Below are positions 1,491 through 7,731 of a stretch of DNA of 64,000 nucleotides, one piece after another; the first letter of the stretch is position 1; the number at the start of each line of letters is the position of its first letter. The translations under genes and the position numbers were made by a program. Source of the stretch: Escherichia phage UFV-AREG1; the sequence record KX009778, one strand, 5' to 3'. The notes beneath the pieces were generated by a model. It was not told where the DNA came from, made no database searches, and saw only the letters and a list, made by a program, of their open reading frames with translations.

Positions 1491-1535
1491 AGCATTTCCT
1501 TTAGTTAATTAAGGGTTTTATAATCCGTAGGAGTA

Positions 1536-1712
1536 TTATACTCCGGATAGTTTGTAAACTATTTCAACATCGCCTTTTGCTGCTTTATAACCTTCAGCCC
1601 AAGATATAACCGAGTTTTTATCTGAAGATTCAAATTCTGGCATTGGGCTTTCGCCAATGTTCACGCAGTATGTTTCTTCATTTTCGTCGAACCAAATAAT
1701 TAAAGTAGTCAT
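1536..1712 (-). CDS. Small hypothetical protein, 58 aa
   Basis: Below ORF-track cutoff; ATG at 1712 preceded by GGAGA SD; upstream promoter-like element with stem-loop (AACACC..GGTGTT) and TATTAT. Confidence 0.4.
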   Translation of the reverse strand: MTTLIIWFDENEETYCVNIGESPMPEFESSDKNSVISWAEGYKAAKGDVEIVYKLSGV

Positions 1713-1780
1713 TTATTTCTCCGTTTCTGTATTTGTTTTGATAAGTCTATAATAACACCGTCCTTGGTGTTTGTACACAA

Positions 1781-2044
1781 TTATTTCATATTATTGAAAT
1801 ATTCTTCTGCGATTTCGTCGTTATCATGGTAAACTTTAGAAGACAGTTTAACATAACCTTCTGCCGTGAACATATTAATCACAACCTTTACAGTATACCA
1901 CTGACCATCTTCATTACCCATTACTGCGTAAGTTTCAAACATCGGATGATCAGGACCGATAACTTTAATATCATTCACTGTACGACCAAAATCTTCTGAA
2001 ACACATTTCATAAAGAAGTTGAACAGTTCTCCGTAATTATCCAT
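1781..2044 (-). CDS. Hypothetical early protein, 87 aa (start moved to internal ATG)
   Basis: Track ORF 1781..2176 has an N-terminal extension across a promoter; ATG at 2044 has GGAGA SD and a GTTTACA-N17-TACTAT early promoter just upstream. Confidence 0.5.
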   Translation of the reverse strand: MDNYGELFNFFMKCVSEDFGRTVNDIKVIGPDHPMFETYAVMGNEDGQWYTVKVVINMFTAEGYVKLSSKVYHDNDEIAEEYFNNMK

Positions 2045-2088
2045 TTCATTCTCCAAGTTGTTTTTCTGTATCAGTAGTTGATAGTTGT

Positions 2089-2118
2089 ATAGTACCATGG
2101 AAGAATAGGGATGTAAAC
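2089..2118 (-). promoter_or_regulatory. T4-type early promoter (GTTTACA -35, 17-nt spacer, TACTAT -10)
   Basis: Minus-strand sequence GTTTACAtccctattcttccatggTACTAT immediately upstream of the 87-aa gene. Confidence 0.55.
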
Positions 2119-2229
2119 AGTTTTGTGAAAAATTTTTTAAAAAGTTTTGGGGGAATTCTAGGGCAGGGAGGGGCAATTAAAGGATAGGATAATATATTAT
2201 AAAGGATAGAAACTAAATGATGCCTAGAG

Positions 2230-2280
2230 AGGCCCGGAAAGGCCTAGATACCAAAAAGCCCCAACCTTTTGGTCGGGGCT
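2230..2280 (-). terminator. Tandem hairpins, intrinsic-terminator-like (minus strand)
   Basis: aggcc-cggaaa-ggcct hairpin followed by gccccaacc-tttt-ggtcggggc hairpin with U-run on the minus strand, downstream of the 2288..2761 gene. Confidence 0.5.
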
Positions 2281-2287
2281 AAGAATG

Positions 2288-2761
2288 TTATTTGATTTGT
2301 TTAGCAGACCAAATGCGGTCTTTAATAATTTTTTGGATGTCTTCAATATACTCAAGAGAGTGAGCATGTGGGTTATCTTTGAAACTATAAGCACGAGCTA
2401 GCTTTTGGCCTTCAGTTTTGATTACTAAAAGCTCTTTAAGGATAGCTTCATATTTGGAGATAATTCCTTTAACGATATTTTTCTCTTGTGTGACTTTAGG
2501 ATCTGCTTTAGGAGCAGGTTTACCTGAAGCCTTTGCAAAAGCAGCGCCAGTAGCAACTAAACTTTTCCAGGCCATACTAACAGCATTCCCCGTAAATCCT
2601 TCTGCTTTCATGTCGCGAGCAAATTGGAATCGTGATTCATCAGAAGCATCTTTATAAGAATATTTACCCGCGGCAATGGCAGCTTTTGCAACAGCTTGAA
2701 TTTCAGTGCTAGATGCTTCATTTAACACCGCTTCATTTAAAAATTGAGCATATGATTTCAT
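2288..2761 (-). CDS. Internal-protein-like protein with capsid-targeting-sequence-like N-terminus, 157 aa
   Basis: N-terminus MKSYAQFLNEA resembles the T-even CTS (MKTYQEFIxEA) with LxE gp21-type cleavage motif; late promoter TATAAATA upstream; flanked by terminator hairpins. Confidence 0.6.
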   Translation of the reverse strand: MKSYAQFLNEAVLNEASSTEIQAVAKAAIAAGKYSYKDASDESRFQFARDMKAEGFTGNAVSMAWKSLVATGAAFAKASGKPAPKADPKVTQEKNIVKGIISKYEAILKELLVIKTEGQKLARAYSFKDNPHAHSLEYIEDIQKIIKDRIWSAKQIK

Positions 2762-2797
2762 CTTATTTCCTGTTTTAATTCGTGGTTTTAATATACT

Positions 2798-2805
2798 TAT
2801 TTATA
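2798..2805 (-). promoter_or_regulatory. T4 late promoter core TATAAATA (minus strand)
   Basis: Exact TATAAATA on the minus strand about 37 nt upstream of ATG at 2761. Confidence 0.5.
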
Positions 2806-2836
2806 CTAAAAAGCCCCAACCTTTCGGTCGGGGCTA
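2806..2836 (-). terminator. Intrinsic terminator hairpin (minus strand)
   Basis: gccccaacc-tttc-ggtcggggc stem-loop followed by UUUUU on the minus strand; near-identical copy at 2251..2280. Confidence 0.55.
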
Positions 2837-2839
2837 AGC

Positions 2840-3122
2840 CTTGCGGCAACCTTGTCGGGGTTCCACCTGCTAAGGCAAGTGTTTGTACGAAACGCCGGGA
2901 TTCGAACCCGGTTATTAAGCAGTTGACGCTACTCAATATTTTTAAAAGGCCATATCTCGACCATATCCGAACGTTCCGTCAAAAACGCTACTCGGCTTAT
3001 GGCAAAGATATTTCCTCGAATCGATAATTCGGTGCGCCGTTTCTGCTGTGATGTAAGAGGGCATCAATAAACGCAAAGATTATTAACGCAATTCCTTACT
3101 CAGGGAACATCAGTCCGACGAC
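2840..3122 (-). ncRNA. Candidate structured small RNA region (tRNA-like T-arm; possible stable-RNA locus or tRNA remnant)
   Basis: About 280 bp with no credible ORF on either strand; minus strand carries CCGGGTTCGAATCCCGG (canonical T-stem/loop) at 2895..2911 with a possible acceptor pairing CGGAACG/CGTTTCG, but no complete cloverleaf; several local hairpins. Confidence 0.3.
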
Positions 3123-3677
3123 TTACCGGTAGCGACCCGGTTTCTCATTTGGTATTTCAAATTGTGTAGATTTAGTATCTAATTTTTTAACTATGGAACT
3201 TATGTCATGAAAGAAAAACCATTCGCCATTTATATGGTCCTGATTATAAATGCTGTGCATATATTTTTCAAGTTCTACTGCATCCTGGGAATATCTAAAT
3301 GATACTATTTTAAAACTTTTAAACGGTGAAAATGTATTTGCTGTTATAACTCTAACATCAGGTTCTATACTTCTTCCTATTTTATAATAATTAGGATTTG
3401 TAGTATCTACCATTATGTATACGAAAGCCTGTCGATAGCTTTTTTCTATATCAAATTCATCTTTAAATTTCAAAAGATTTAGGGCGGCAGTCCTACAAAA
3501 TACTTTCCATTTTGACAAGCGTTTAGCTTTAGTCATAGAAAAGAATTTTTTCTTATCTGTTATTTTAAGAAAAGCAACATTTTCAATTAGTTCTTGTGTT
3601 ATTTCAAAATTACCATGGTATATTAATCCAGCTTTTATAGCCAAATTAATTTGGTCCCAGTCTACATCACTTCTCAT
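3123..3677 (-). CDS. T5orf172 / GIY-YIG-like domain protein, 184 aa
   Basis: C-terminal half carries FVYIMVDTTNPNYYKIGRS ... R ... E..E..MH ... NGEWFFF, matching the GIY-YIG-like T5orf172 signature; N-terminal 85 aa unassigned. Confidence 0.6.
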   Translation of the reverse strand: MRSDVDWDQINLAIKAGLIYHGNFEITQELIENVAFLKITDKKKFFSMTKAKRLSKWKVFCRTAALNLLKFKDEFDIEKSYRQAFVYIMVDTTNPNYYKIGRSIEPDVRVITANTFSPFKSFKIVSFRYSQDAVELEKYMHSIYNQDHINGEWFFFHDISSIVKKLDTKSTQFEIPNEKPGRYR

Positions 3678-3698
3678 AATATTATTCTCTCAATAATT

Positions 3699-3775
3699 TG
3701 GCCAGGGTGAAAGGATTCTAACCTTTAACCTGCGGTTTAGAGGACCGCTACTCTATACAATTGAGTTACACCCCG
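3699..3775 (-). tRNA. tRNA-Arg (anticodon TCT), CCA encoded
   Basis: Manual cloverleaf: acceptor CGGGGTG/CACCCTG, D-stem ACTC/GAGT, anticodon stem GCGGT/ACCGC with loop CCTCTAA, T-arm AAAGG-TTAGAAT-CCTTT. Confidence 0.8.
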
Positions 3776-3901
3776 TAATTAGTTCACAGCAATACCTACT
3801 CCAACAATCAAGATGTCTTCACACGAAATTAAGAGAAAAGTGATCAGTTCAACCCTTATAATCGCGTCAAGTAGATATTAATGTGACAACTGTCACAAGT
3901 T

Positions 3902-3976
3902 TGGCGGACATGCATGGATTCGAACCATGGACCAATTGATTAACAGTCAACTGCTCTACCACTGAGCTACACATCC
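3902..3976 (-). tRNA. tRNA-Asn (anticodon GTT), CCA encoded
   Basis: Manual cloverleaf: acceptor GGATGTG/CATGTCC, D-arm GCTC-AGTGGTA-GAGC, anticodon loop CTGTTAA, T-arm CATGG-TTCGAAT-CCATG. Confidence 0.75.
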
Positions 3977-3980
3977 AAAT

Positions 3981-4067
3981 TGGTGGGGAGTGATGGAGTC
4001 GAACCACCCGAGTCGCAATGACAATGGATTTACAGTCCACACCGCTACCTCTACGGGATAACTCCCC
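3981..4067 (-). tRNA. tRNA-Tyr (anticodon GTA), type II with long variable arm, CCA encoded
   Basis: Acceptor GGGGAGT/ACTCCCC, anticodon stem GTGGA/TCCAT with loop CTGTAAA, long variable arm, T-arm GGTGG-TTCGACT-CCATC; D-arm pairing is irregular. Confidence 0.6.
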
Positions 4068-4076
4068 AAATTAATT

Positions 4077-4153
4077 TGGTGACCCAGACCAGATTTGAAC
4101 TGGTAACCTTTCCCTTATGAGGGGACTGCTGCTAACCATTGAGCTACAGGGCC
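4077..4153 (-). tRNA. tRNA with CAT anticodon (Ile-lysidine type or elongator Met), CCA encoded
   Basis: T-arm ACCAG-TTCAAAT-CTGGT, anticodon loop CTCATAA; acceptor stem has one mismatch and one G-U. Confidence 0.6.
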
Positions 4154-4154
4154 T

Positions 4155-4230
4155 TGGTGCTGATTGACGGAATCGAACCGCCGACATCCTCATTACAAGT
4201 GAGGTGCTCTACCTACTGAGCTAAATCAGC
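4155..4230 (-). tRNA. tRNA-Thr (anticodon TGT), CCA encoded
   Basis: Acceptor GCTGATT/AATCAGC, D-arm GCTC-AGTAGGTA-GAGC, anticodon stem CCTCA/TGAGG with loop CTTGTAA, T-arm GGCGG-TTCGATT-CCGTC. Confidence 0.8.
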
Positions 4231-4232
4231 AA

Positions 4233-4319
4233 CGGAGGCGATAGGATTTGAACCTATGAGTCGCCGGAGCGACTGCCGGTTTTCAAGACCGGTGCATTAA
4301 ACCACTCTGCCACGCCTCC
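4233..4319 (-). tRNA. tRNA-Ser (anticodon TGA), type II
   Basis: Acceptor GGAGGCG/CGCCTCC, anticodon stem CCGGT/ACCGG with loop CTTGAAA, long variable arm, T-arm ATAGG-TTCAAAT-CCTAT; no encoded CCA. Confidence 0.75.
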
Positions 4320-4321
4320 AG

Positions 4322-4395
4322 TCTCCATACAAGGATTTGAACCTTGGACCTCCTGATCCCAAATCAGGCGCTCTACCAAACTGAGCTACACGGAG
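4322..4395 (-). tRNA. tRNA-Pro (anticodon TGG)
   Basis: Acceptor CTCCGTG/TATGGAG (two G-U), D-arm GCTC-AGTTTGGTA-GAGC, anticodon stem CCTGA/TCAGG with loop TTTGGGA, T-arm CAAGG-TTCAAAT-CCTTG. Confidence 0.75.
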
Positions 4396-4405
4396 TAAAT
4401 TAAAT

Positions 4406-4479
<74 letters not shown>

Positions 4480-4485
4480 AAACTT

Positions 4486-4572
4486 TGGTACGAGAAGTGG
4501 GACTCGAACCCACAAGGAAATCATTCCGCAGCATTTTAAGTGCTGTGCCTTTACCAATTTGACCATTCTCGC
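4486..4572 (-). tRNA. tRNA-Leu (anticodon TAA), type II, CCA encoded
   Basis: Acceptor GCGAGAA/TTCTCGT, anticodon stem CAGCA/TGCTG with loop CTTAAAA, long variable arm, T-arm TGTGG-GTTCGAGTC-CCACT region. Confidence 0.75.
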
Positions 4573-4573
4573 G

Positions 4574-4646
4574 CTGGGAATAAAGGACTCGAACCTTTGC
4601 ATCTAGCAGTCAAAGTGCTATGCCTTACCAACTTGGCTAATTCCCA
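4574..4646 (-). tRNA. tRNA-Gln (anticodon TTG)
   Basis: Acceptor TGGGAAT/ATTCCCA, anticodon stem TAGCA/TGCTA with loop CTTTGAC, T-arm AAAGG-TTCGAGT-CCTTT. Confidence 0.75.
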
Positions 4647-4743
4647 ATTATTAACAAAGGCTCTCAGGAAAGAACCCTTGATGATAGAGGGTATTAATCA
4701 GTGCGGTATGAGTTAATAATAACAAATAATTCTTAAAGCATAT

Positions 4744-5031
4744 TTACCATTTATGATAATACATATTTACAATGCATTCAAGACCTAAAGGATTCTTGAA
4801 AATATCATATTCAAGAGGACCTTTTTCTGTTTCAATAAAGAAATCAAAATTTACTGTATTAAATTTACGGTCTTCCTTCACTAATTTAACTTGAGAAGAT
4901 GAACGGTCAACATAAACCTTTTCAACTTCAAAACATGTTAAAATGCCATAATCATCGATCAAGGCTTTAGCTGCTTCTTGATCATATTTATATCCATTTT
5001 CAATTGACGATACTTTAGCATAAAGAATCAT
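4744..5031 (-). CDS. Hypothetical protein, 95 aa (ip-locus accessory gene)
   Basis: ORF co-oriented and tightly packed downstream of the 5034..5423 gene; no recognisable motif. Confidence 0.5.
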   Translation of the reverse strand: MILYAKVSSIENGYKYDQEAAKALIDDYGILTCFEVEKVYVDRSSSQVKLVKEDRKFNTVNFDFFIETEKGPLEYDIFKNPLGLECIVNMYYHKW

Positions 5032-5033
5032 TA

Positions 5034-5423
5034 TCAGCCTTCATCAACAATAGTATGAGTGTGGGCATTTACAATTTGCCACCAATCAAAGCGATTATAA
5101 CCATACATCGGTTTGTTTTCATTTTCTTTGATAATATCACGGAGTTCATCTTCGGTAGCGGCTTTCGCGATTAAATCAGCATATCCACCACGAGGATAAT
5201 AATTATCACCTGCAAAAAGTAAAAAGTTCGGTTTAATATTATTGAACTCTTCAAGAGTAATAACTTTTCCTGTCGGTTGAACAATCTCTACATATTTATA
5301 TCCTAATTTTTGAGCAGCATCTACTGCTTCAAGCAAAGTATCATGAGCCCATCCAATTTGACAACCTGGCTTTTCAGATGGATTAGCCTGATAATCCGCG
5401 TACACTTTATACATTCTATTCAC
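5034..5423 (-). CDS. Hypothetical protein, 129 aa (ip-locus accessory gene)
   Basis: ORF overlapping the upstream small membrane-protein gene by 8 nt (likely coupled translation); no recognisable motif. Confidence 0.5.
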   Translation of the reverse strand: MNRMYKVYADYQANPSEKPGCQIGWAHDTLLEAVDAAQKLGYKYVEIVQPTGKVITLEEFNNIKPNFLLFAGDNYYPRGGYADLIAKAATEDELRDIIKENENKPMYGYNRFDWWQIVNAHTHTIVDEG

Positions 5424-5601
5424 CTTTAGAAATTTTATCCATAACGATAGCGATTAAACCAATTAAAAATGCTACTACAAGTGAAAACACATTTTCTGCT
5501 GTAGTTAATAATCCGCATATAAATCCAGCAAACATTGAAAAACTAAAAGCAGAAGCAGAAATTGCAATAGCAACATTTCGAATTAATTCACAACGTTTCA
5601 T
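5416..5601 (-). CDS. Small membrane protein, 61 aa (start moved to internal ATG)
   Basis: Track ORF 5416..5670 extends across a promoter cassette; ATG at 5601 has GAGGAG SD; two predicted TM helices (AIAISASAFSFSMFAGFICGLL, VFSLVVAFLIGLIAIVM). Confidence 0.5.
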   Translation of the reverse strand: MKRCELIRNVAIAISASAFSFSMFAGFICGLLTTAENVFSLVVAFLIGLIAIVMDKISKGE

Positions 5602-5629
5602 TTTATTCTCCTCAGTAGTTGATAGGGTA

Positions 5630-5659
5630 ATAGTATCACTACTAAAACCCAATGTAAAC
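5630..5659 (-). promoter_or_regulatory. Early-promoter/stem-loop cassette (PeSL-like): GTTTACA-N17-TACTAT
   Basis: Minus-strand GTTTACA and TACTAT hexamers 17 nt apart, followed by the conserved GAGGAGAATAAAATG ribosome-binding module. Confidence 0.55.
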
Positions 5660-5662
5660 AAT

Positions 5663-5887
5663 TTATTCAACGCCAGCGGCTTTCAAAAGTTTTTTAAGAT
5701 TGGCAACACCTTGAGCAGAAAATGTGACCTTGCCACCTTTTTCACTGATAGAACCAACCAATTTAGCAAGTTTATCATTAGGAATTTTTTTAAAATCAGC
5801 CAATGTTCCATCAAAGGTTTTTGAAACAAAAGGCAGTTCGTCTTCGCGTCTTTTAGCTTCTACAATAAATTCTTGATATGTTTTCAT
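5663..5887 (-). CDS. Internal-protein-like protein with CTS, 74 aa
   Basis: N-terminus MKTYQEFIVEA matches the T-even capsid-targeting sequence; own promoter cassette upstream. Confidence 0.65.
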   Translation of the reverse strand: MKTYQEFIVEAKRREDELPFVSKTFDGTLADFKKIPNDKLAKLVGSISEKGGKVTFSAQGVANLKKLLKAAGVE

Positions 5888-5915
5888 TTTATTCTCCTCA
5901 GTAGTTGATAGGGTA

Positions 5916-5945
5916 ATAGTATCACTACCCCATCTAAAAGTAAAC
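5916..5945 (-). promoter_or_regulatory. Early-promoter/stem-loop cassette (PeSL-like)
   Basis: Minus-strand GTTTAC -35, TACTAT -10 lying in the loop of a GGGTA/TACCC stem, then GAGGAG SD. Confidence 0.55.
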
Positions 5946-5955
5946 GGTTTATAAA

Positions 5956-6264
5956 CTATTTTATTCCGCGTGATGCAATTGTGTTCTGCCGTTTAACGCC
6001 AGTTTGTTTAAAGTCATGATTGTCGATTTGATCGGTACGAGCAACTCCGAATGATGATTTGATCTTAGCTTTAGATCCTTTAGTTATAGAAATAAACATC
6101 TCGGAAGCCCCTTTCTTAAAGTCCGAAGCGATTACTTCAACGCCGTTCTTAGCAAGTGACTTCAGAATTGCCTCTGCATACTCATCGTCAAGACTCGTCT
6201 GAGTATTAATAACGAATGTCTTTGGCGCAGCCGCTTCATTGATAAATTCTTTGAAAGTTTTCAT
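5956..6264 (-). CDS. Internal-protein-like protein with CTS, 102 aa
   Basis: N-terminus MKTFKEFINEA (CTS); own promoter cassette upstream. Confidence 0.65.
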   Translation of the reverse strand: MKTFKEFINEAAAPKTFVINTQTSLDDEYAEAILKSLAKNGVEVIASDFKKGASEMFISITKGSKAKIKSSFGVARTDQIDNHDFKQTGVKRQNTIASRGIK

Positions 6265-6294
6265 TTTATTTTCCTAATTAAGTTTGATGAGATA

Positions 6295-6324
6295 ATAGTA
6301 TCACAACCCTATTTAAAAGTAAAC
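6295..6324 (-). promoter_or_regulatory. Early-promoter/stem-loop cassette (PeSL-like)
   Basis: Minus-strand GTTTAC -35 overlapping the stop of the upstream gene, TACTAT -10, then AGGAAAATAAAATG. Confidence 0.5.
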
Positions 6325-6597
6325 TCATTTTAAATAAATTGCGTATTTTTTATAACCCGCTGACTCATGACGAAGACCCTTATCATTAGCAAAACGCTCA
6401 ATGTTGTTAATTTGATTCTGGTCAAGTTCAGAGATGTCAAACACGAAAAAGTTACGTTTGTTACCAACTGTTACATAGTCAGTTAAATCAATATCATATA
6501 GGTAATTGATGTCAGCAATCAAAGTCTTGACAGCTTTGCTAATTTTTACTTTTTCGTTAAAAGTAGCTTCATTGATAAATTCTTGATATGTTTTCAT
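6325..6597 (-). CDS. Internal-protein-like protein with CTS, 90 aa
   Basis: N-terminus MKTYQEFINEA (CTS); own promoter cassette upstream. Confidence 0.65.
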   Translation of the reverse strand: MKTYQEFINEATFNEKVKISKAVKTLIADINYLYDIDLTDYVTVGNKRNFFVFDISELDQNQINNIERFANDKGLRHESAGYKKYAIYLK

Positions 6598-6625
6598 TTT
6601 ATTCTCCTCAGTAGTTGATAGGGTA

Positions 6626-6655
6626 ATAATATCACAACTAAAACCCTATGTAAAT
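6626..6655 (-). promoter_or_regulatory. Early-promoter/stem-loop cassette (PeSL-like)
   Basis: Minus-strand ATTTACA -35, 17-nt spacer, TATTAT -10, then GAGGAGAATAAAATG. Confidence 0.5.
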
Positions 6656-6673
6656 AACTTTGTGAAAAATTTA

Positions 6674-6961
6674 TTACAAAAGATTTTTAGCAATAATCTT
6701 GAGATGTGCCGCAGAAATGTGTTTAGCTTTAAACAACGCAGTTTCTTCAGCAGGAGAGATAACGATTGTAGCACCATCCTTTTTAGCAGACCACCCATCG
6801 CCTAGGTAAACAGTACCTTTGATTTCTTCGCCATCAACCAGACTAATCATTGGTTTACCTTCTCGTCCTTTATTTGCTTTAATAACTTCAGAAGTAAGAG
6901 TAGCTTCGGTAATAGTAGAAACCGGGGTAGTTGTAGAAGTAAATTCTTTGAAAGTTTTCAT
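6674..6961 (-). CDS. ipI: Internal protein I (IPI)-like, 95 aa; predicted 19-aa CTS leaving a 76-aa mature protein
   Basis: N-terminus MKTFKEFTSTTTPVSTITE|A with ITE gp21 cleavage motif; 95 aa precursor / 76 aa mature matches T4 IPI; located next to 57B as in T4. Confidence 0.7.
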   Translation of the reverse strand: MKTFKEFTSTTTPVSTITEATLTSEVIKANKGREGKPMISLVDGEEIKGTVYLGDGWSAKKDGATIVISPAEETALFKAKHISAAHLKIIAKNLL

Positions 6962-6982
6962 TTTATTTTCCTAATTAATTTT

Positions 6983-7021
6983 GATGAGGTAATAGTATCA
7001 CTACCTCATCAGTATGTAAAC
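6983..7021 (-). promoter_or_regulatory. Early-promoter/stem-loop cassette (PeSL-like) with perfect 9-bp hairpin
   Basis: Minus-strand GTTTACA-N17-TACTAT; the -10 lies in the loop of gatgaggta / tacctcatc (6983..7010). Confidence 0.6.
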
Positions 7022-7033
7022 AACTTTGTGAAA

Positions 7034-7730
<697 letters not shown>

Positions 7731-7731
<1 letters not shown>

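Follow-up and report, generated by a model that had tools for sequence, protein, structure and literature searches.

The DNA analysed was a window of 64,000 nucleotides from Escherichia phage UFV-AREG1 (sequence record KX009778). The ORF map of this window has revealed that three minus-strand ORFs fill positions 4744-5601 exactly, with a promoter cassette ahead of them and a cluster of tRNA genes behind. The features found in the region, in the direction of transcription, are the following:

5602..5665, minus strand: PeSL-type cassette (promoter-early/stem-loop) upstream of trna.4, from alignment, promoter scan and folding
5658-5653, minus strand: -35 element TTTACA of the cassette, from the promoter scan
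About 5650-5625, minus strand: hairpin of the cassette, from folding, which spans the -10 region
5635-5630, minus strand: -10 element TACTAT of the cassette with an upstream TG, from the promoter scan
5613-5608, minus strand: Shine-Dalgarno sequence GAGGAG of the cassette, placed by its coordinates
5416..5601, minus strand: trna.4 orthologue, 61 aa from the ATG at 5601
5034..5414, minus strand: trna.3 orthologue, 126 aa from the ATG at 5414 (129 aa with the GTG at 5423)
4744..5031, minus strand: trna.2 orthologue, 95 aa
4985..4992, minus strand: late-promoter-like motif TATAAATA within trna.2, found by pattern, with an offset that matches that of T4 PL2
4716..4743, minus strand: middle-promoter-like site with MotA-box-like ATATGCTTTA, a 12-nt spacer and TATTAT
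3699..4646, minus strand: ten-tRNA cluster (ARAGORN, Rfam), immediately downstream of the module

A preliminary description of the locus as three tightly packed, co-oriented genes behind an ip-type cassette was borne out by the ORF map and by the cassette alignment, as was the 2-nt gap between trna.3 and trna.2 (TGA-TA-ATG at 5036-5026). However, the length of 129 aa and the 8-nt overlap with trna.4 that had been given for trna.3 rest on the first in-frame GTG, and the ATG at 5414 is the likelier start. Because a Shine-Dalgarno-like GGTGA lies upstream of this ATG, and Trna.3 homologues of the same allele type start with MYKV at its position (including the fPS-2 annotation), trna.3 most likely encodes 126 aa and begins after a 1-nt gap from the trna.4 stop (TAG-A-ATG). 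Within the module, only 1-2 nt separate each downstream start from the stop before it, and each of these starts has a Shine-Dalgarno sequence of its own.

Judged by sequence similarity, the module is the T4 trna.4-trna.3-trna.2 set as carried by this Tequatrovirus, and the genes are already known. Their T4 counterparts are ORF2, ORF3 and ORF4 of the tRNA-region sequence of Broida & Abelson 1985 (X03016), with accession numbers NP_049748, NP_049747 and NP_049746 (UniProt P13322, P13323 and P13324) for Trna.4, Trna.3 and Trna.2. The module is not novel: these genes have been annotated in T4 since 1985, and both the T4 RefSeq and X03016 show the same gene set, promoters and stem-loop. In megablast, the region was 95-98% identical to many Tequatroviruses carrying tRNA.2/.3/.4 annotations. 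Full-length similarity placed Trna.4, Trna.3 and Trna.2 in PHROG 1692, 1411 and 2023 (E 5e-35, 3.5e-55 and 8e-48, respectively); the precomputed Pfam families of the homologues are PF26870, PF26894 and PF27001, and homologues were present in 737, 762 and 802 phage records. Spurious ORFs were rejected, on the basis of the proteins detected in T4 and the strong conservation across genera.

As in T4, the module is located between the ip locus (57A-57B-ipI) and tRNA-Gln, in the same gene order and on the same strand, with an early promoter/stem-loop ahead of it and a middle promoter behind. Trna.4 is identical to the T4 protein in 60/61 residues and Trna.2 in about 96%, and the C-terminal domain of Trna.3 is nearly identical in protein sequence. 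By contrast, Trna.3 is 59% identical overall and shorter than in T4 (126 against 136 aa); the window has three additional ip-like genes between the module and ipI, and its tRNA set resembles that of T2, with Met, Tyr and Asn and without segB.

The 60-70 nt before the module match at nearly every base those before ipI and the three extra ip-like genes. Five copies of the cassette are found in a row in the window, and the five aligned copies share TTTACA-17 nt-TACTAT, the upstream TG, GAGGAG and even ATGAAA. Its T4 counterpart in X03016 is PE1 together with the stem-loop annotated as 'pot. IpI terminator', and the cassette fits the PeSL consensus of PST/T4, TTTACW-N17-TAYWAT (PMC4122927). As a consensus early promoter with a stem-loop, repeated before neighbouring accessory genes, it agrees with the definition of a PeSL regulatory cassette, and it resembles those of T4-type phages (Arbiol et al. 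2010, PMC2839356; Comeau et al. 2014, PMC4122927) in being a ~60-70 bp repeat whose stem-loop heads accessory genes of the hyperplastic region. It differs from them in that the stem of the trna.4 copy is degenerate: this hairpin (-11.7 kcal/mol, z -0.8) is no stabler than shuffled sequence, and that of the ipI cassette is stronger (-17.4 kcal/mol, z -3.4). In addition, PeSL cassettes precede variable genes, whereas trna.4 behind this one is conserved. An early sigma-70-type promoter in this ip-type cassette would drive trna.4-trna.3-trna.2. In T4 the three genes all belong to the early RNA class, with Trna.2 and Trna.3 in the early protein class and Trna.4 without a protein class (PMC9697503 supplement); the PE1-type promoter sequence is conserved in the window, and the measurements of early RNA and protein come from T4 only.

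The middle-promoter-like site at 4716..4743 is located directly past the trna.2 stop and is followed by tRNA-Gln. It corresponds to PM2 annotated in X03016, where PL2 sits 39-46 nt into ORF4, and ATATGCTTTA resembles the MotA-box consensus. A middle promoter of the tRNA cluster has been described (PMC2330249). The cluster in the window comprises tRNAs for Gln, Leu, Gly, Pro, Ser, Thr, Met, Tyr, Asn and Arg. The terminator scan found nothing terminator-like in the stretch from the module to this cluster, so early transcripts of the module probably extend into the tRNAs.

Direct reading of the N-termini (Trna.4 MKRCELIRN, Trna.3 MYKVYADY and Trna.2 MILYAKV) revealed that the capsid-targeting sequence (MKT[YF][QK]EF.. 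to a Glu cleavage site) is absent from all three module products; the four ip genes of the window encode N-termini MKTYQEFI/MKTFKEF that follow the pattern MKT[YF][QK]EF. The absence of the leader had been noted in the preliminary description, together with the proposal that the products act inside the infected cell and are not injected, which is supported by this absence and by the early class of the T4 orthologues. The module shares with the T4 internal proteins (IPI, IPII, IPIII and ip4-ip9-type alternates) the promoter and Shine-Dalgarno cassette up to and including the initial codons ATG AAA, as well as small size and location in the genome. Apart from the leader, it differs from them in the hydrophobic membrane protein Trna.4, and the T4 internal proteins have been described as highly basic (PMC6071114) whereas Trna.2 and Trna.3 are acidic.

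Trna.4 is strongly hydrophobic, with a positive N-terminus and span-like segments around residues 9-32 and 38-55 in the hydropathy profile, in agreement with the two-TM 61-aa protein described before, and it is predicted to form an inner-membrane hairpin with two membrane spans. Imm, a known T4 exclusion protein, is likewise a small membrane protein. Superinfection exclusion or host takeover at the membrane by Trna.4 and its two partners would be in keeping with a two-span protein that is small and early in T4, as Imm is, and with three co-transcribed and tightly packed genes. Nevertheless, such a device is highly improbable: Trna.4 has no detectable similarity to Imm or Sp (BLASTP E 1.8 and 0.54), which are encoded at other loci and already serve T4 for superinfection exclusion, no family annotation or literature link was found for it, nor is it known to cause exclusion, and the exclusion role proposed earlier was left unsupported. 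Moreover, tight packing is uninformative in T4-type genomes, and the soluble partners occur in other phages without any Trna.4 homologue.

Trna.3 is soluble and acidic (Trna.2 and Trna.3 have a pI of about 4.8-4.9), and its confident AlphaFold2 model (pLDDT 85.5) shows two domains, both small and of the alpha/beta type. The motif FLLFAGDNYYPxGG...DWWQIVN lies in the C-terminal one (residues about 63-126), and the profiles of the N- and C-terminal domains were aligned by hhalign with a probability of 57% and E 1e-4. Two tandem copies of a small 'YYPxGG...WWQIVD' domain, which is found solo in many phages, probably make up Trna.3. A Trna.3 profile search gave 529 matches at E <= 1e-3, and the great majority of the 150 matches listed cover the C-terminal domain alone. 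A fold search (BFVD) returned uncharacterised phage proteins only, and a search of the 64-kb window for other copies of the domain found none. The N-terminal half is a diverged allele, with 42-57% DNA identity to T4 over about 5225-5420, and this stretch is flanked by DNA with 78-100% identity to T4, as in an allelic swap.

The order 57A-57B-ip-trna.4-trna.3-trna.2-tRNAs is constant in every examined Tevenvirinae-type genome with all three genes, and in Kanagawavirus, Marfavirus, Mosigvirus and Gelderlandvirus it is found as 57A-57B-ip-trna.4-(extra small ORF)-trna.3-trna.2-tRNAs. All three genes were present in 21/21 Tevenvirinae-type loci from IMG/VR, and the first tRNA was within ~1 kb past trna.2 in the 20/20 that reach that far. 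This fixed order, kept in at least five genera, and stop and start codons only 1-2 nt apart are what would be found if Trna.4 anchored Trna.3 and Trna.2 at the inner membrane in one obligate complex with a single function. However, T4-type genomes typically keep gene order whatever the function, several genera have additional genes inserted between those of the module, and the Gelderlandvirus Trna.3 is cut to the C-terminal domain. The Trna.3 domain mostly occurs as a protein by itself, and homologues of Trna.2 without trna.3 or trna.4 occur in four other lineages (Cronus, Muldoon-type, Eneladusvirus and Mydovirus phages). The preliminary description took the compact coupling as a sign that the products act together, which is weak evidence because such tight packing is the norm in T4-type genomes; translational coupling was rejected as evidence of joint function, since 57A and 57B overlap both in T4 and in the window despite unrelated annotations, 57A being annotated as a tail-fibre chaperone. 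The independent occurrence of Trna.2 and of the Trna.3 C-terminal domain in other phages also speaks against joint action. Because Trna.2 and the Trna.3 domain are each found alone elsewhere, Trna.4, Trna.3 and Trna.2 are probably not one obligate machine, and the anchored complex is distinctly unlikely.

Trna.2 (95 aa) is acidic and soluble (pI 4.9), and its AlphaFold2 model is poor (pLDDT 49) because the alignment is shallow. Its homologues are located near tRNA genes or tRNA-repair enzymes in several lineages: T4-like phages, jumbo Eneladus/Mimasviruses and rV5-like Mydoviruses (CCA-adding enzyme). In Erwinia phage Cronus and in a 167.5-kb Muldoon-type contig, a solo homologue lies within a tRNA array and is followed after 3-8 nt by a tRNA; pEa_SNUABM_47 and XbC2, two unrelated jumbo phages, also have one within a tRNA array, and in the Vequintavirinae phage KPP-1 the homologue is two genes upstream of a verified CCA-adding enzyme. 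Together with the position of trna.2 directly upstream of the tRNAs in the window, in T4 and in all the IMG/VR loci that extend so far, and with the syntenic region of RB49, which has no tRNA genes and none of trna.4, trna.3 and trna.2, these settings suggest that Trna.2, perhaps with the whole module, could serve tRNA supply by processing, stabilising or protecting phage or host tRNAs, e.g. as a shield from tRNA-targeting defences. This would account for trna.2 staying attached to tRNA genes. However, Trna.2 is acidic and has no RNA-binding or enzymatic signature, and neither in Aeromonas phage ZPAH1 nor in Bacillus phage Bc431v3 does a homologue sit in a tRNA context. It is also common for tRNA arrays to contain small ORFs and homing endonucleases that are unrelated, and the tRNA region of the jumbo phages takes up ~8% of the genome with ~70 ORFs, so that membership of it is weak evidence. 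The order of the downstream tRNAs suggests that trna.2 and its tRNAs may have moved as a block, which would amount to neutral hitch-hiking; in addition, the association was spotted post hoc. A role in tRNA supply is considered unlikely. A more specific version, in which Trna.2 (PF27001) would be a tRNA-linked factor for maturation or shielding and Trna.3 a phage-wide binding domain with a fast-evolving, target-specific N-terminal copy, is equally doubtful and is put forward tentatively.

Trna.2 was among only two T4 proteins enriched in a pulldown with active DRT1 (PMC13275509), which the authors did not follow up, and this enrichment could reflect abundance or DNA-mediated association. T2L 'trna.2' has served as a hybridisation marker in the literature.

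Searches for function in Pfam, NCBIfam and PADLOC gave no significant family match for Trna.4, Trna.3 or Trna.2, and PHROGs returned only unknown-function groups for the three proteins. Matches to DUF2721, NTP_transferase, DUF5092 and TusC were discarded as sub-threshold noise in the family scans. Nothing was found in PDB sequence-profile searches with the module proteins, and there are no recognisable catalytic motifs in the three products. Literature on them consisted of the DRT1 pulldown, the T2L hybridisation marker and omics tables, the Pfam accessions led to nothing, and the literature that could be searched gave no direct functional evidence for any of the three. The preliminary description had reckoned with homologues that would be ordinary conserved T4 ORFs of known function; ordinary conserved T4 ORFs they are, but with no known function.

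Taking these results together, the reading that we favour, and hold to be fairly probable, is that the module is a copy of T4 trna.4-trna.3-trna.2 encoding early accessory binding or counter-defence proteins and not one obligate machine. Trna.4 would be an inner-membrane hairpin, Trna.3 a cytosolic protein with two copies of a phage-wide domain and Trna.2 an acidic cytosolic protein, and these accessory, non-structural products may bind host or phage macromolecules early in infection. They would belong with the T4 'monkey-wrench'/counter-defence factors, as do the upstream neighbours of the module, Acb1 (57B, anti-CBASS family) and IPI. We infer this class from the neighbourhood of the genes, the size and charge of the products and the time of expression, all generic features of T4 early genes. 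Judging by classical deletion mutants, T4 trna.4, trna.3 and trna.2 would be dispensable. Many small immediate-early T4 products have been described as non-essential host modulators (PMC6071114), and counter-defence factors are encoded by other early accessory genes of T4 (PMC9391042). The enrichment of Trna.2 with DRT1 and the allelic swap in the Trna.3 N-terminal domain also fit this class. The conservation of Trna.4 (60/61 residues) is extreme, unlike that of typical arms-race proteins, and counts against the counter-defence class.

The discovery value of the locus is small, with annotated T4 'conserved hypothetical' genes and a known PeSL/PE1 cassette found again, although trna.4, trna.3 and trna.2 rank with the most widely conserved early genes of T4 whose function is unassigned. 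The new details are the Trna.3 tandem, the diverged N-terminal half of Trna.3 and the solo Trna.2 homologues (in tRNA arrays twice and by a CCA-adding enzyme once). Leads for experiments are the stand-alone 'YYPxGG/WWQIVD' family, the swap limited to the Trna.3 N-terminal domain, and the recurrent siting of Trna.2 by tRNA genes or a CCA-adding enzyme along with its enrichment in the DRT1 pulldown.

The observation of three genes at 4744-5601 (minus strand) was correct; they are already known, annotated T4 genes, and both their identity and their regulatory anatomy are firmly established. A megablast search with 4700-5700 retrieved 851 phage records; the best matches were Tequatroviruses (95-98% identity), one of which names the genes tRNA.4, tRNA.3 and tRNA.2. 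In the T4 reference, ipI and tRNA-Gln flank the genes trna.4 (61 aa), trna.3 (136 aa) and trna.2 (95 aa), which are ORF2-4 in the 1985 record X03016. The ORF listing covered 3500-7500 of the window and reproduced the module coordinates exactly. Genes and promoter counterparts (the latter from the sequence, compared with X03016) are the following:

7489-7731, minus: 57A-like ORF, 80 aa, matching T4 57A in place and length
Minus: 57B, 151-aa ORF, Pfam Acb1 match
Minus: ipI, 95-aa ORF, Pfam IPI_T4 match
5663-6597, minus: three ip-like ORFs (90, 102 and 74 aa) between ipI and trna.4, starting MKT[YF][QK]EFI
5658-5630, minus: counterpart of early promoter PE1
5601-5416, minus: trna.4, 61 aa
5423 (GTG) or 5414 (ATG) to 5034, minus: trna.3, 129 or 126 aa
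5031-4744, minus: trna.2, 95 aa
4992-4985, minus: counterpart of late element PL2, TATAAATA, in trna.2
4743-4716, minus: counterpart of middle promoter PM2, ATATGCTTTA-12 nt-TATTAT
4646-3699, minus: ten tRNA genes, directly after the module and on its strand

The 61-aa product is a predicted membrane protein, very hydrophobic, with an N-terminus rich in K/R and two segments that resemble membrane spans, whereas Trna.3 and Trna.2 are soluble and acidic (pI about 4.8-4.9). All three N-termini are unlike the capsid-targeting leader. The 2-nt spacing of the second and third genes is read directly as TGA-TA-ATG. The 8-nt overlap of the first two, with a 129-aa product, depends on the GTG at 5423, and the ATG at 5414 is the likelier start: it is preceded by a GGTGA Shine-Dalgarno-like sequence, homologues of the same allele type start with MYKV at this position and phage fPS-2 is annotated likewise. 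These features argue for a TAG-A-ATG junction, in which trna.3 more likely encodes 126 aa and starts 1 nt past the trna.4 stop.

Over 60-70 nt, the sequence in front of the module can be aligned nearly base for base with those preceding ipI and each of the three ip-like genes. Common to all are TTTACA, a 17-nt spacer, TACTAT with TG before it, the Shine-Dalgarno sequence GAGGAG and ATGAAA. The ip-type promoter/stem-loop cassette of the preliminary description is thus borne out by the alignment and by a promoter scan, and the repeated cassette fits the T4/PST consensus TTTACW-N17-TAYWAT of the promoter-early stem-loop (PeSL) named by Arbiol, Comeau and Krisch (PMC4122927). In the ipI cassette a strong hairpin spans the -10 hexamer (-17.4 kcal/mol, z -3.4); its counterpart before the module is degenerate (-11.7 kcal/mol, z -0.8). 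Each ip-like gene has its own PeSL cassette and the leader MKT[YF][QK]EFI.EA, and none of them matched Pfam; T4 has ipI alone at this position, and 5663-6597 is therefore an expanded form of a polymorphic ip locus.

In X03016, PE1 lies before ORF2 together with an overlapping stem-loop labelled 'potential IpI terminator', the late -10 element PL2 lies within ORF4 and PM2 right behind the ORF4 stop; all these features are kept in the window. The late-promoter-like motif TATAAATA is present twice in the module (minus strand), at 5293-5300 in the region of the Trna.3 N-terminal domain and at 4985-4992, and the latter copy could be a source of late transcripts into the tRNA cluster. A terminator scan found no terminator-like site between the module and the tRNAs, and early transcripts from PE1 would probably read on into the cluster, which otherwise depends mainly on the middle promoter (PMC2330249). 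T4 trna.2 and trna.3 are classified as early both at the RNA and the protein level, and trna.4 as early RNA, without an assigned protein class (Wolfram-Schauerte et al. 2022 supplement, PMC9697503), the latter being unsurprising for a 61-aa membrane peptide. According to these T4 omics data, the three are real, expressed genes.

By tblastn, Trna.4 was found in 737, Trna.3 in 762 and Trna.2 in 802 phage records, once in each. Kanagawavirus (PEi26, CIP9), Marfavirus (MY02), Mosigvirus (SA35RD) and Gelderlandvirus (NP4) all share the gene order 57A-57B-ip-trna.4-trna.3-trna.2-tRNAs. All three genes were present in the 21 Tevenvirinae-type IMG/VR loci retrieved with the Trna.2 profile, with the first tRNA within about 1 kb of trna.2 in each of the 20 that extend past this gene. 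The syntenic region of RB49 contains neither tRNAs nor trna.4, trna.3 and trna.2.

Compared with T4, Trna.4 is identical at 60 of 61 residues and Trna.2 at about 96%, but Trna.3 at only 59%. DNA identity to T4 is 97-100% over trna.4, drops sharply close to the trna.3 start to 42-57% over the N-terminal half (about 5420-5225) and returns to 78-85% over the C-terminal half and 90-100% over trna.2. The N-terminal domain of Trna.3 is therefore a diverged allele, and this sharp mosaic boundary indicates an allelic swap limited to one protein domain (5225-5420, minus strand).

A Trna.3 profile was searched against 1.8 billion representatives, giving 529 matches at E <= 1e-3. Among the 150 matches listed, the great majority were 55-100-aa proteins covering only profile positions about 64-127, with the conserved pattern [FY]LLF[AG]G..YYP.GG..D[LF] ... 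T..EA ... [FW]DWW[QH]IVD..T..IV. Stand-alone copies of this domain were found (BFVD and tblastn) in phages of Salmonella, Klebsiella, Erwinia, Staphylococcus, Bacillus and Brevundimonas; no further copy was found in the window. In NP4, Trna.3 consists of the 70-aa C-terminal domain alone. PEi26, CIP9 and MY02 have an extra stand-alone copy (61-63 aa) between trna.4 and trna.3, located in the Kanagawavirus/Marfavirus loci as follows:

L004, 2314-2505
L005, 2320-2505
L013, 1704-1892

In NP4 the same position holds a second small membrane protein instead. The two halves of Trna.3 match each other in profile-profile comparison (probability 57%, E 1e-4, 48 columns, matching secondary structure), which points to a probable tandem duplication with a fast-evolving N-terminal copy. 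Every PHROG matching the 'YYPxGG/WWQIVD' domain is of unknown function. In one representative from the profile search (P0091, 158 aa) the domain is fused to an N-terminal XRE-type helix-turn-helix (HTH_31/HTH_3), a fusion which hints that the domain can act in a repressor-like protein as its sensor or oligomerisation module.

Trna.2 homologues are also found without trna.3 and trna.4:

L009, 2498-2770: Erwinia phage Cronus, within a tRNA array, tRNA-Lys 3 nt downstream
L036, 5968-6270: 167.5-kb contig, within a tRNA array, tRNA-Met 8 nt downstream
L037, 4995-5264: jumbo phage pEa_SNUABM_47 (Eneladusvirus), within a tRNA array
L040, 2989-3249: jumbo phage XbC2 (Mimasvirus), within a tRNA array
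L014, 12608-12892: Klebsiella phage KPP-1 (Vequintavirinae), with a CCA-adding enzyme two genes downstream (confirmed by its Pfam domains: PolyA_pol head, RNA-binding and HD) and no tRNA gene within 26 kb

This recurrence in tRNA arrays or near a CCA-adding enzyme suggests that Trna.2 may have a function connected with tRNA, which is the most interesting of the remaining readings, although we consider it rather improbable. The pattern was noticed post hoc and is a lead, not a result; the jumbo-phage tRNA region extends over about 30 kb and about 70 ORFs, which is about 8% of the genome, unrelated ORFs such as segB or an HNH endonuclease also lie within tRNA arrays, joint block transfer of trna.2 with adjacent tRNAs is plausible, and the homologues of Aeromonas phage ZPAH1 and Bacillus phage Bc431v3 are counter-examples without tRNA context.

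Pfam, NCBIfam and PADLOC scans of the three proteins gave no significant match, PDB sequence-profile searches were empty, each protein belongs to a PHROG of unknown function and the Trna.2 structure model is poor (pLDDT 49); homologues bear the recent Pfam accessions PF26870, PF26894 and PF27001. The trna.4-trna.2 genes of T4 are probably dispensable on laboratory hosts, to judge from classical e-to-ipI deletion mutants. The functional interpretation of the preliminary description was only partly supported: the cassette and the lack of a leader stood, unlike superinfection exclusion and joint action. For exclusion, the one argument was a small early membrane protein, and no relation of Trna.4 to T4 Imm or Sp was found. 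Tight packing is uninformative because upstream 57A (annotated as tail-fibre chaperone) and 57B (Acb1 family) overlap with unrelated annotations. The module is probably not an obligate three-part machine, given that two of its parts are found on their own in other phages.

On mechanism, the best-supported position is that the products would be immediate-early accessory proteins, non-structural and with no recognisable catalytic motif, namely one membrane hairpin (Trna.4) and two acidic soluble proteins (Trna.3, Trna.2), most likely acting by binding host or phage macromolecules. Acb1 and IPI are direct neighbours of the module. In T4, many of the small immediate-early products modulate the host and are non-essential (PMC6071114), and several early accessory genes are counter-defence factors (PMC9391042). 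The literature search found a single functional mention: in infected cells, just two T4 proteins, Trna.2 and Inh, were enriched with active DRT1 over its reverse-transcriptase-dead control, a result that the authors did not follow up (PMC13275509). A few concrete leads are left for functional work on Trna.2, Trna.3 and Trna.4.

Directly downstream of tRNA-Arg, a 184-aa ORF (3123-3677, minus strand) with a MUG113/T5orf172 (GIY-YIG-related) domain occupies the site of rnaD and rnaC, the stable RNAs of T4; an Rfam gathering-threshold scan of 1500-6000 gave tRNA matches only. With tRNAs for Met, Tyr and Asn but no segB, the tRNA set of the window is similar to that of T2L as given in PMC2330249.
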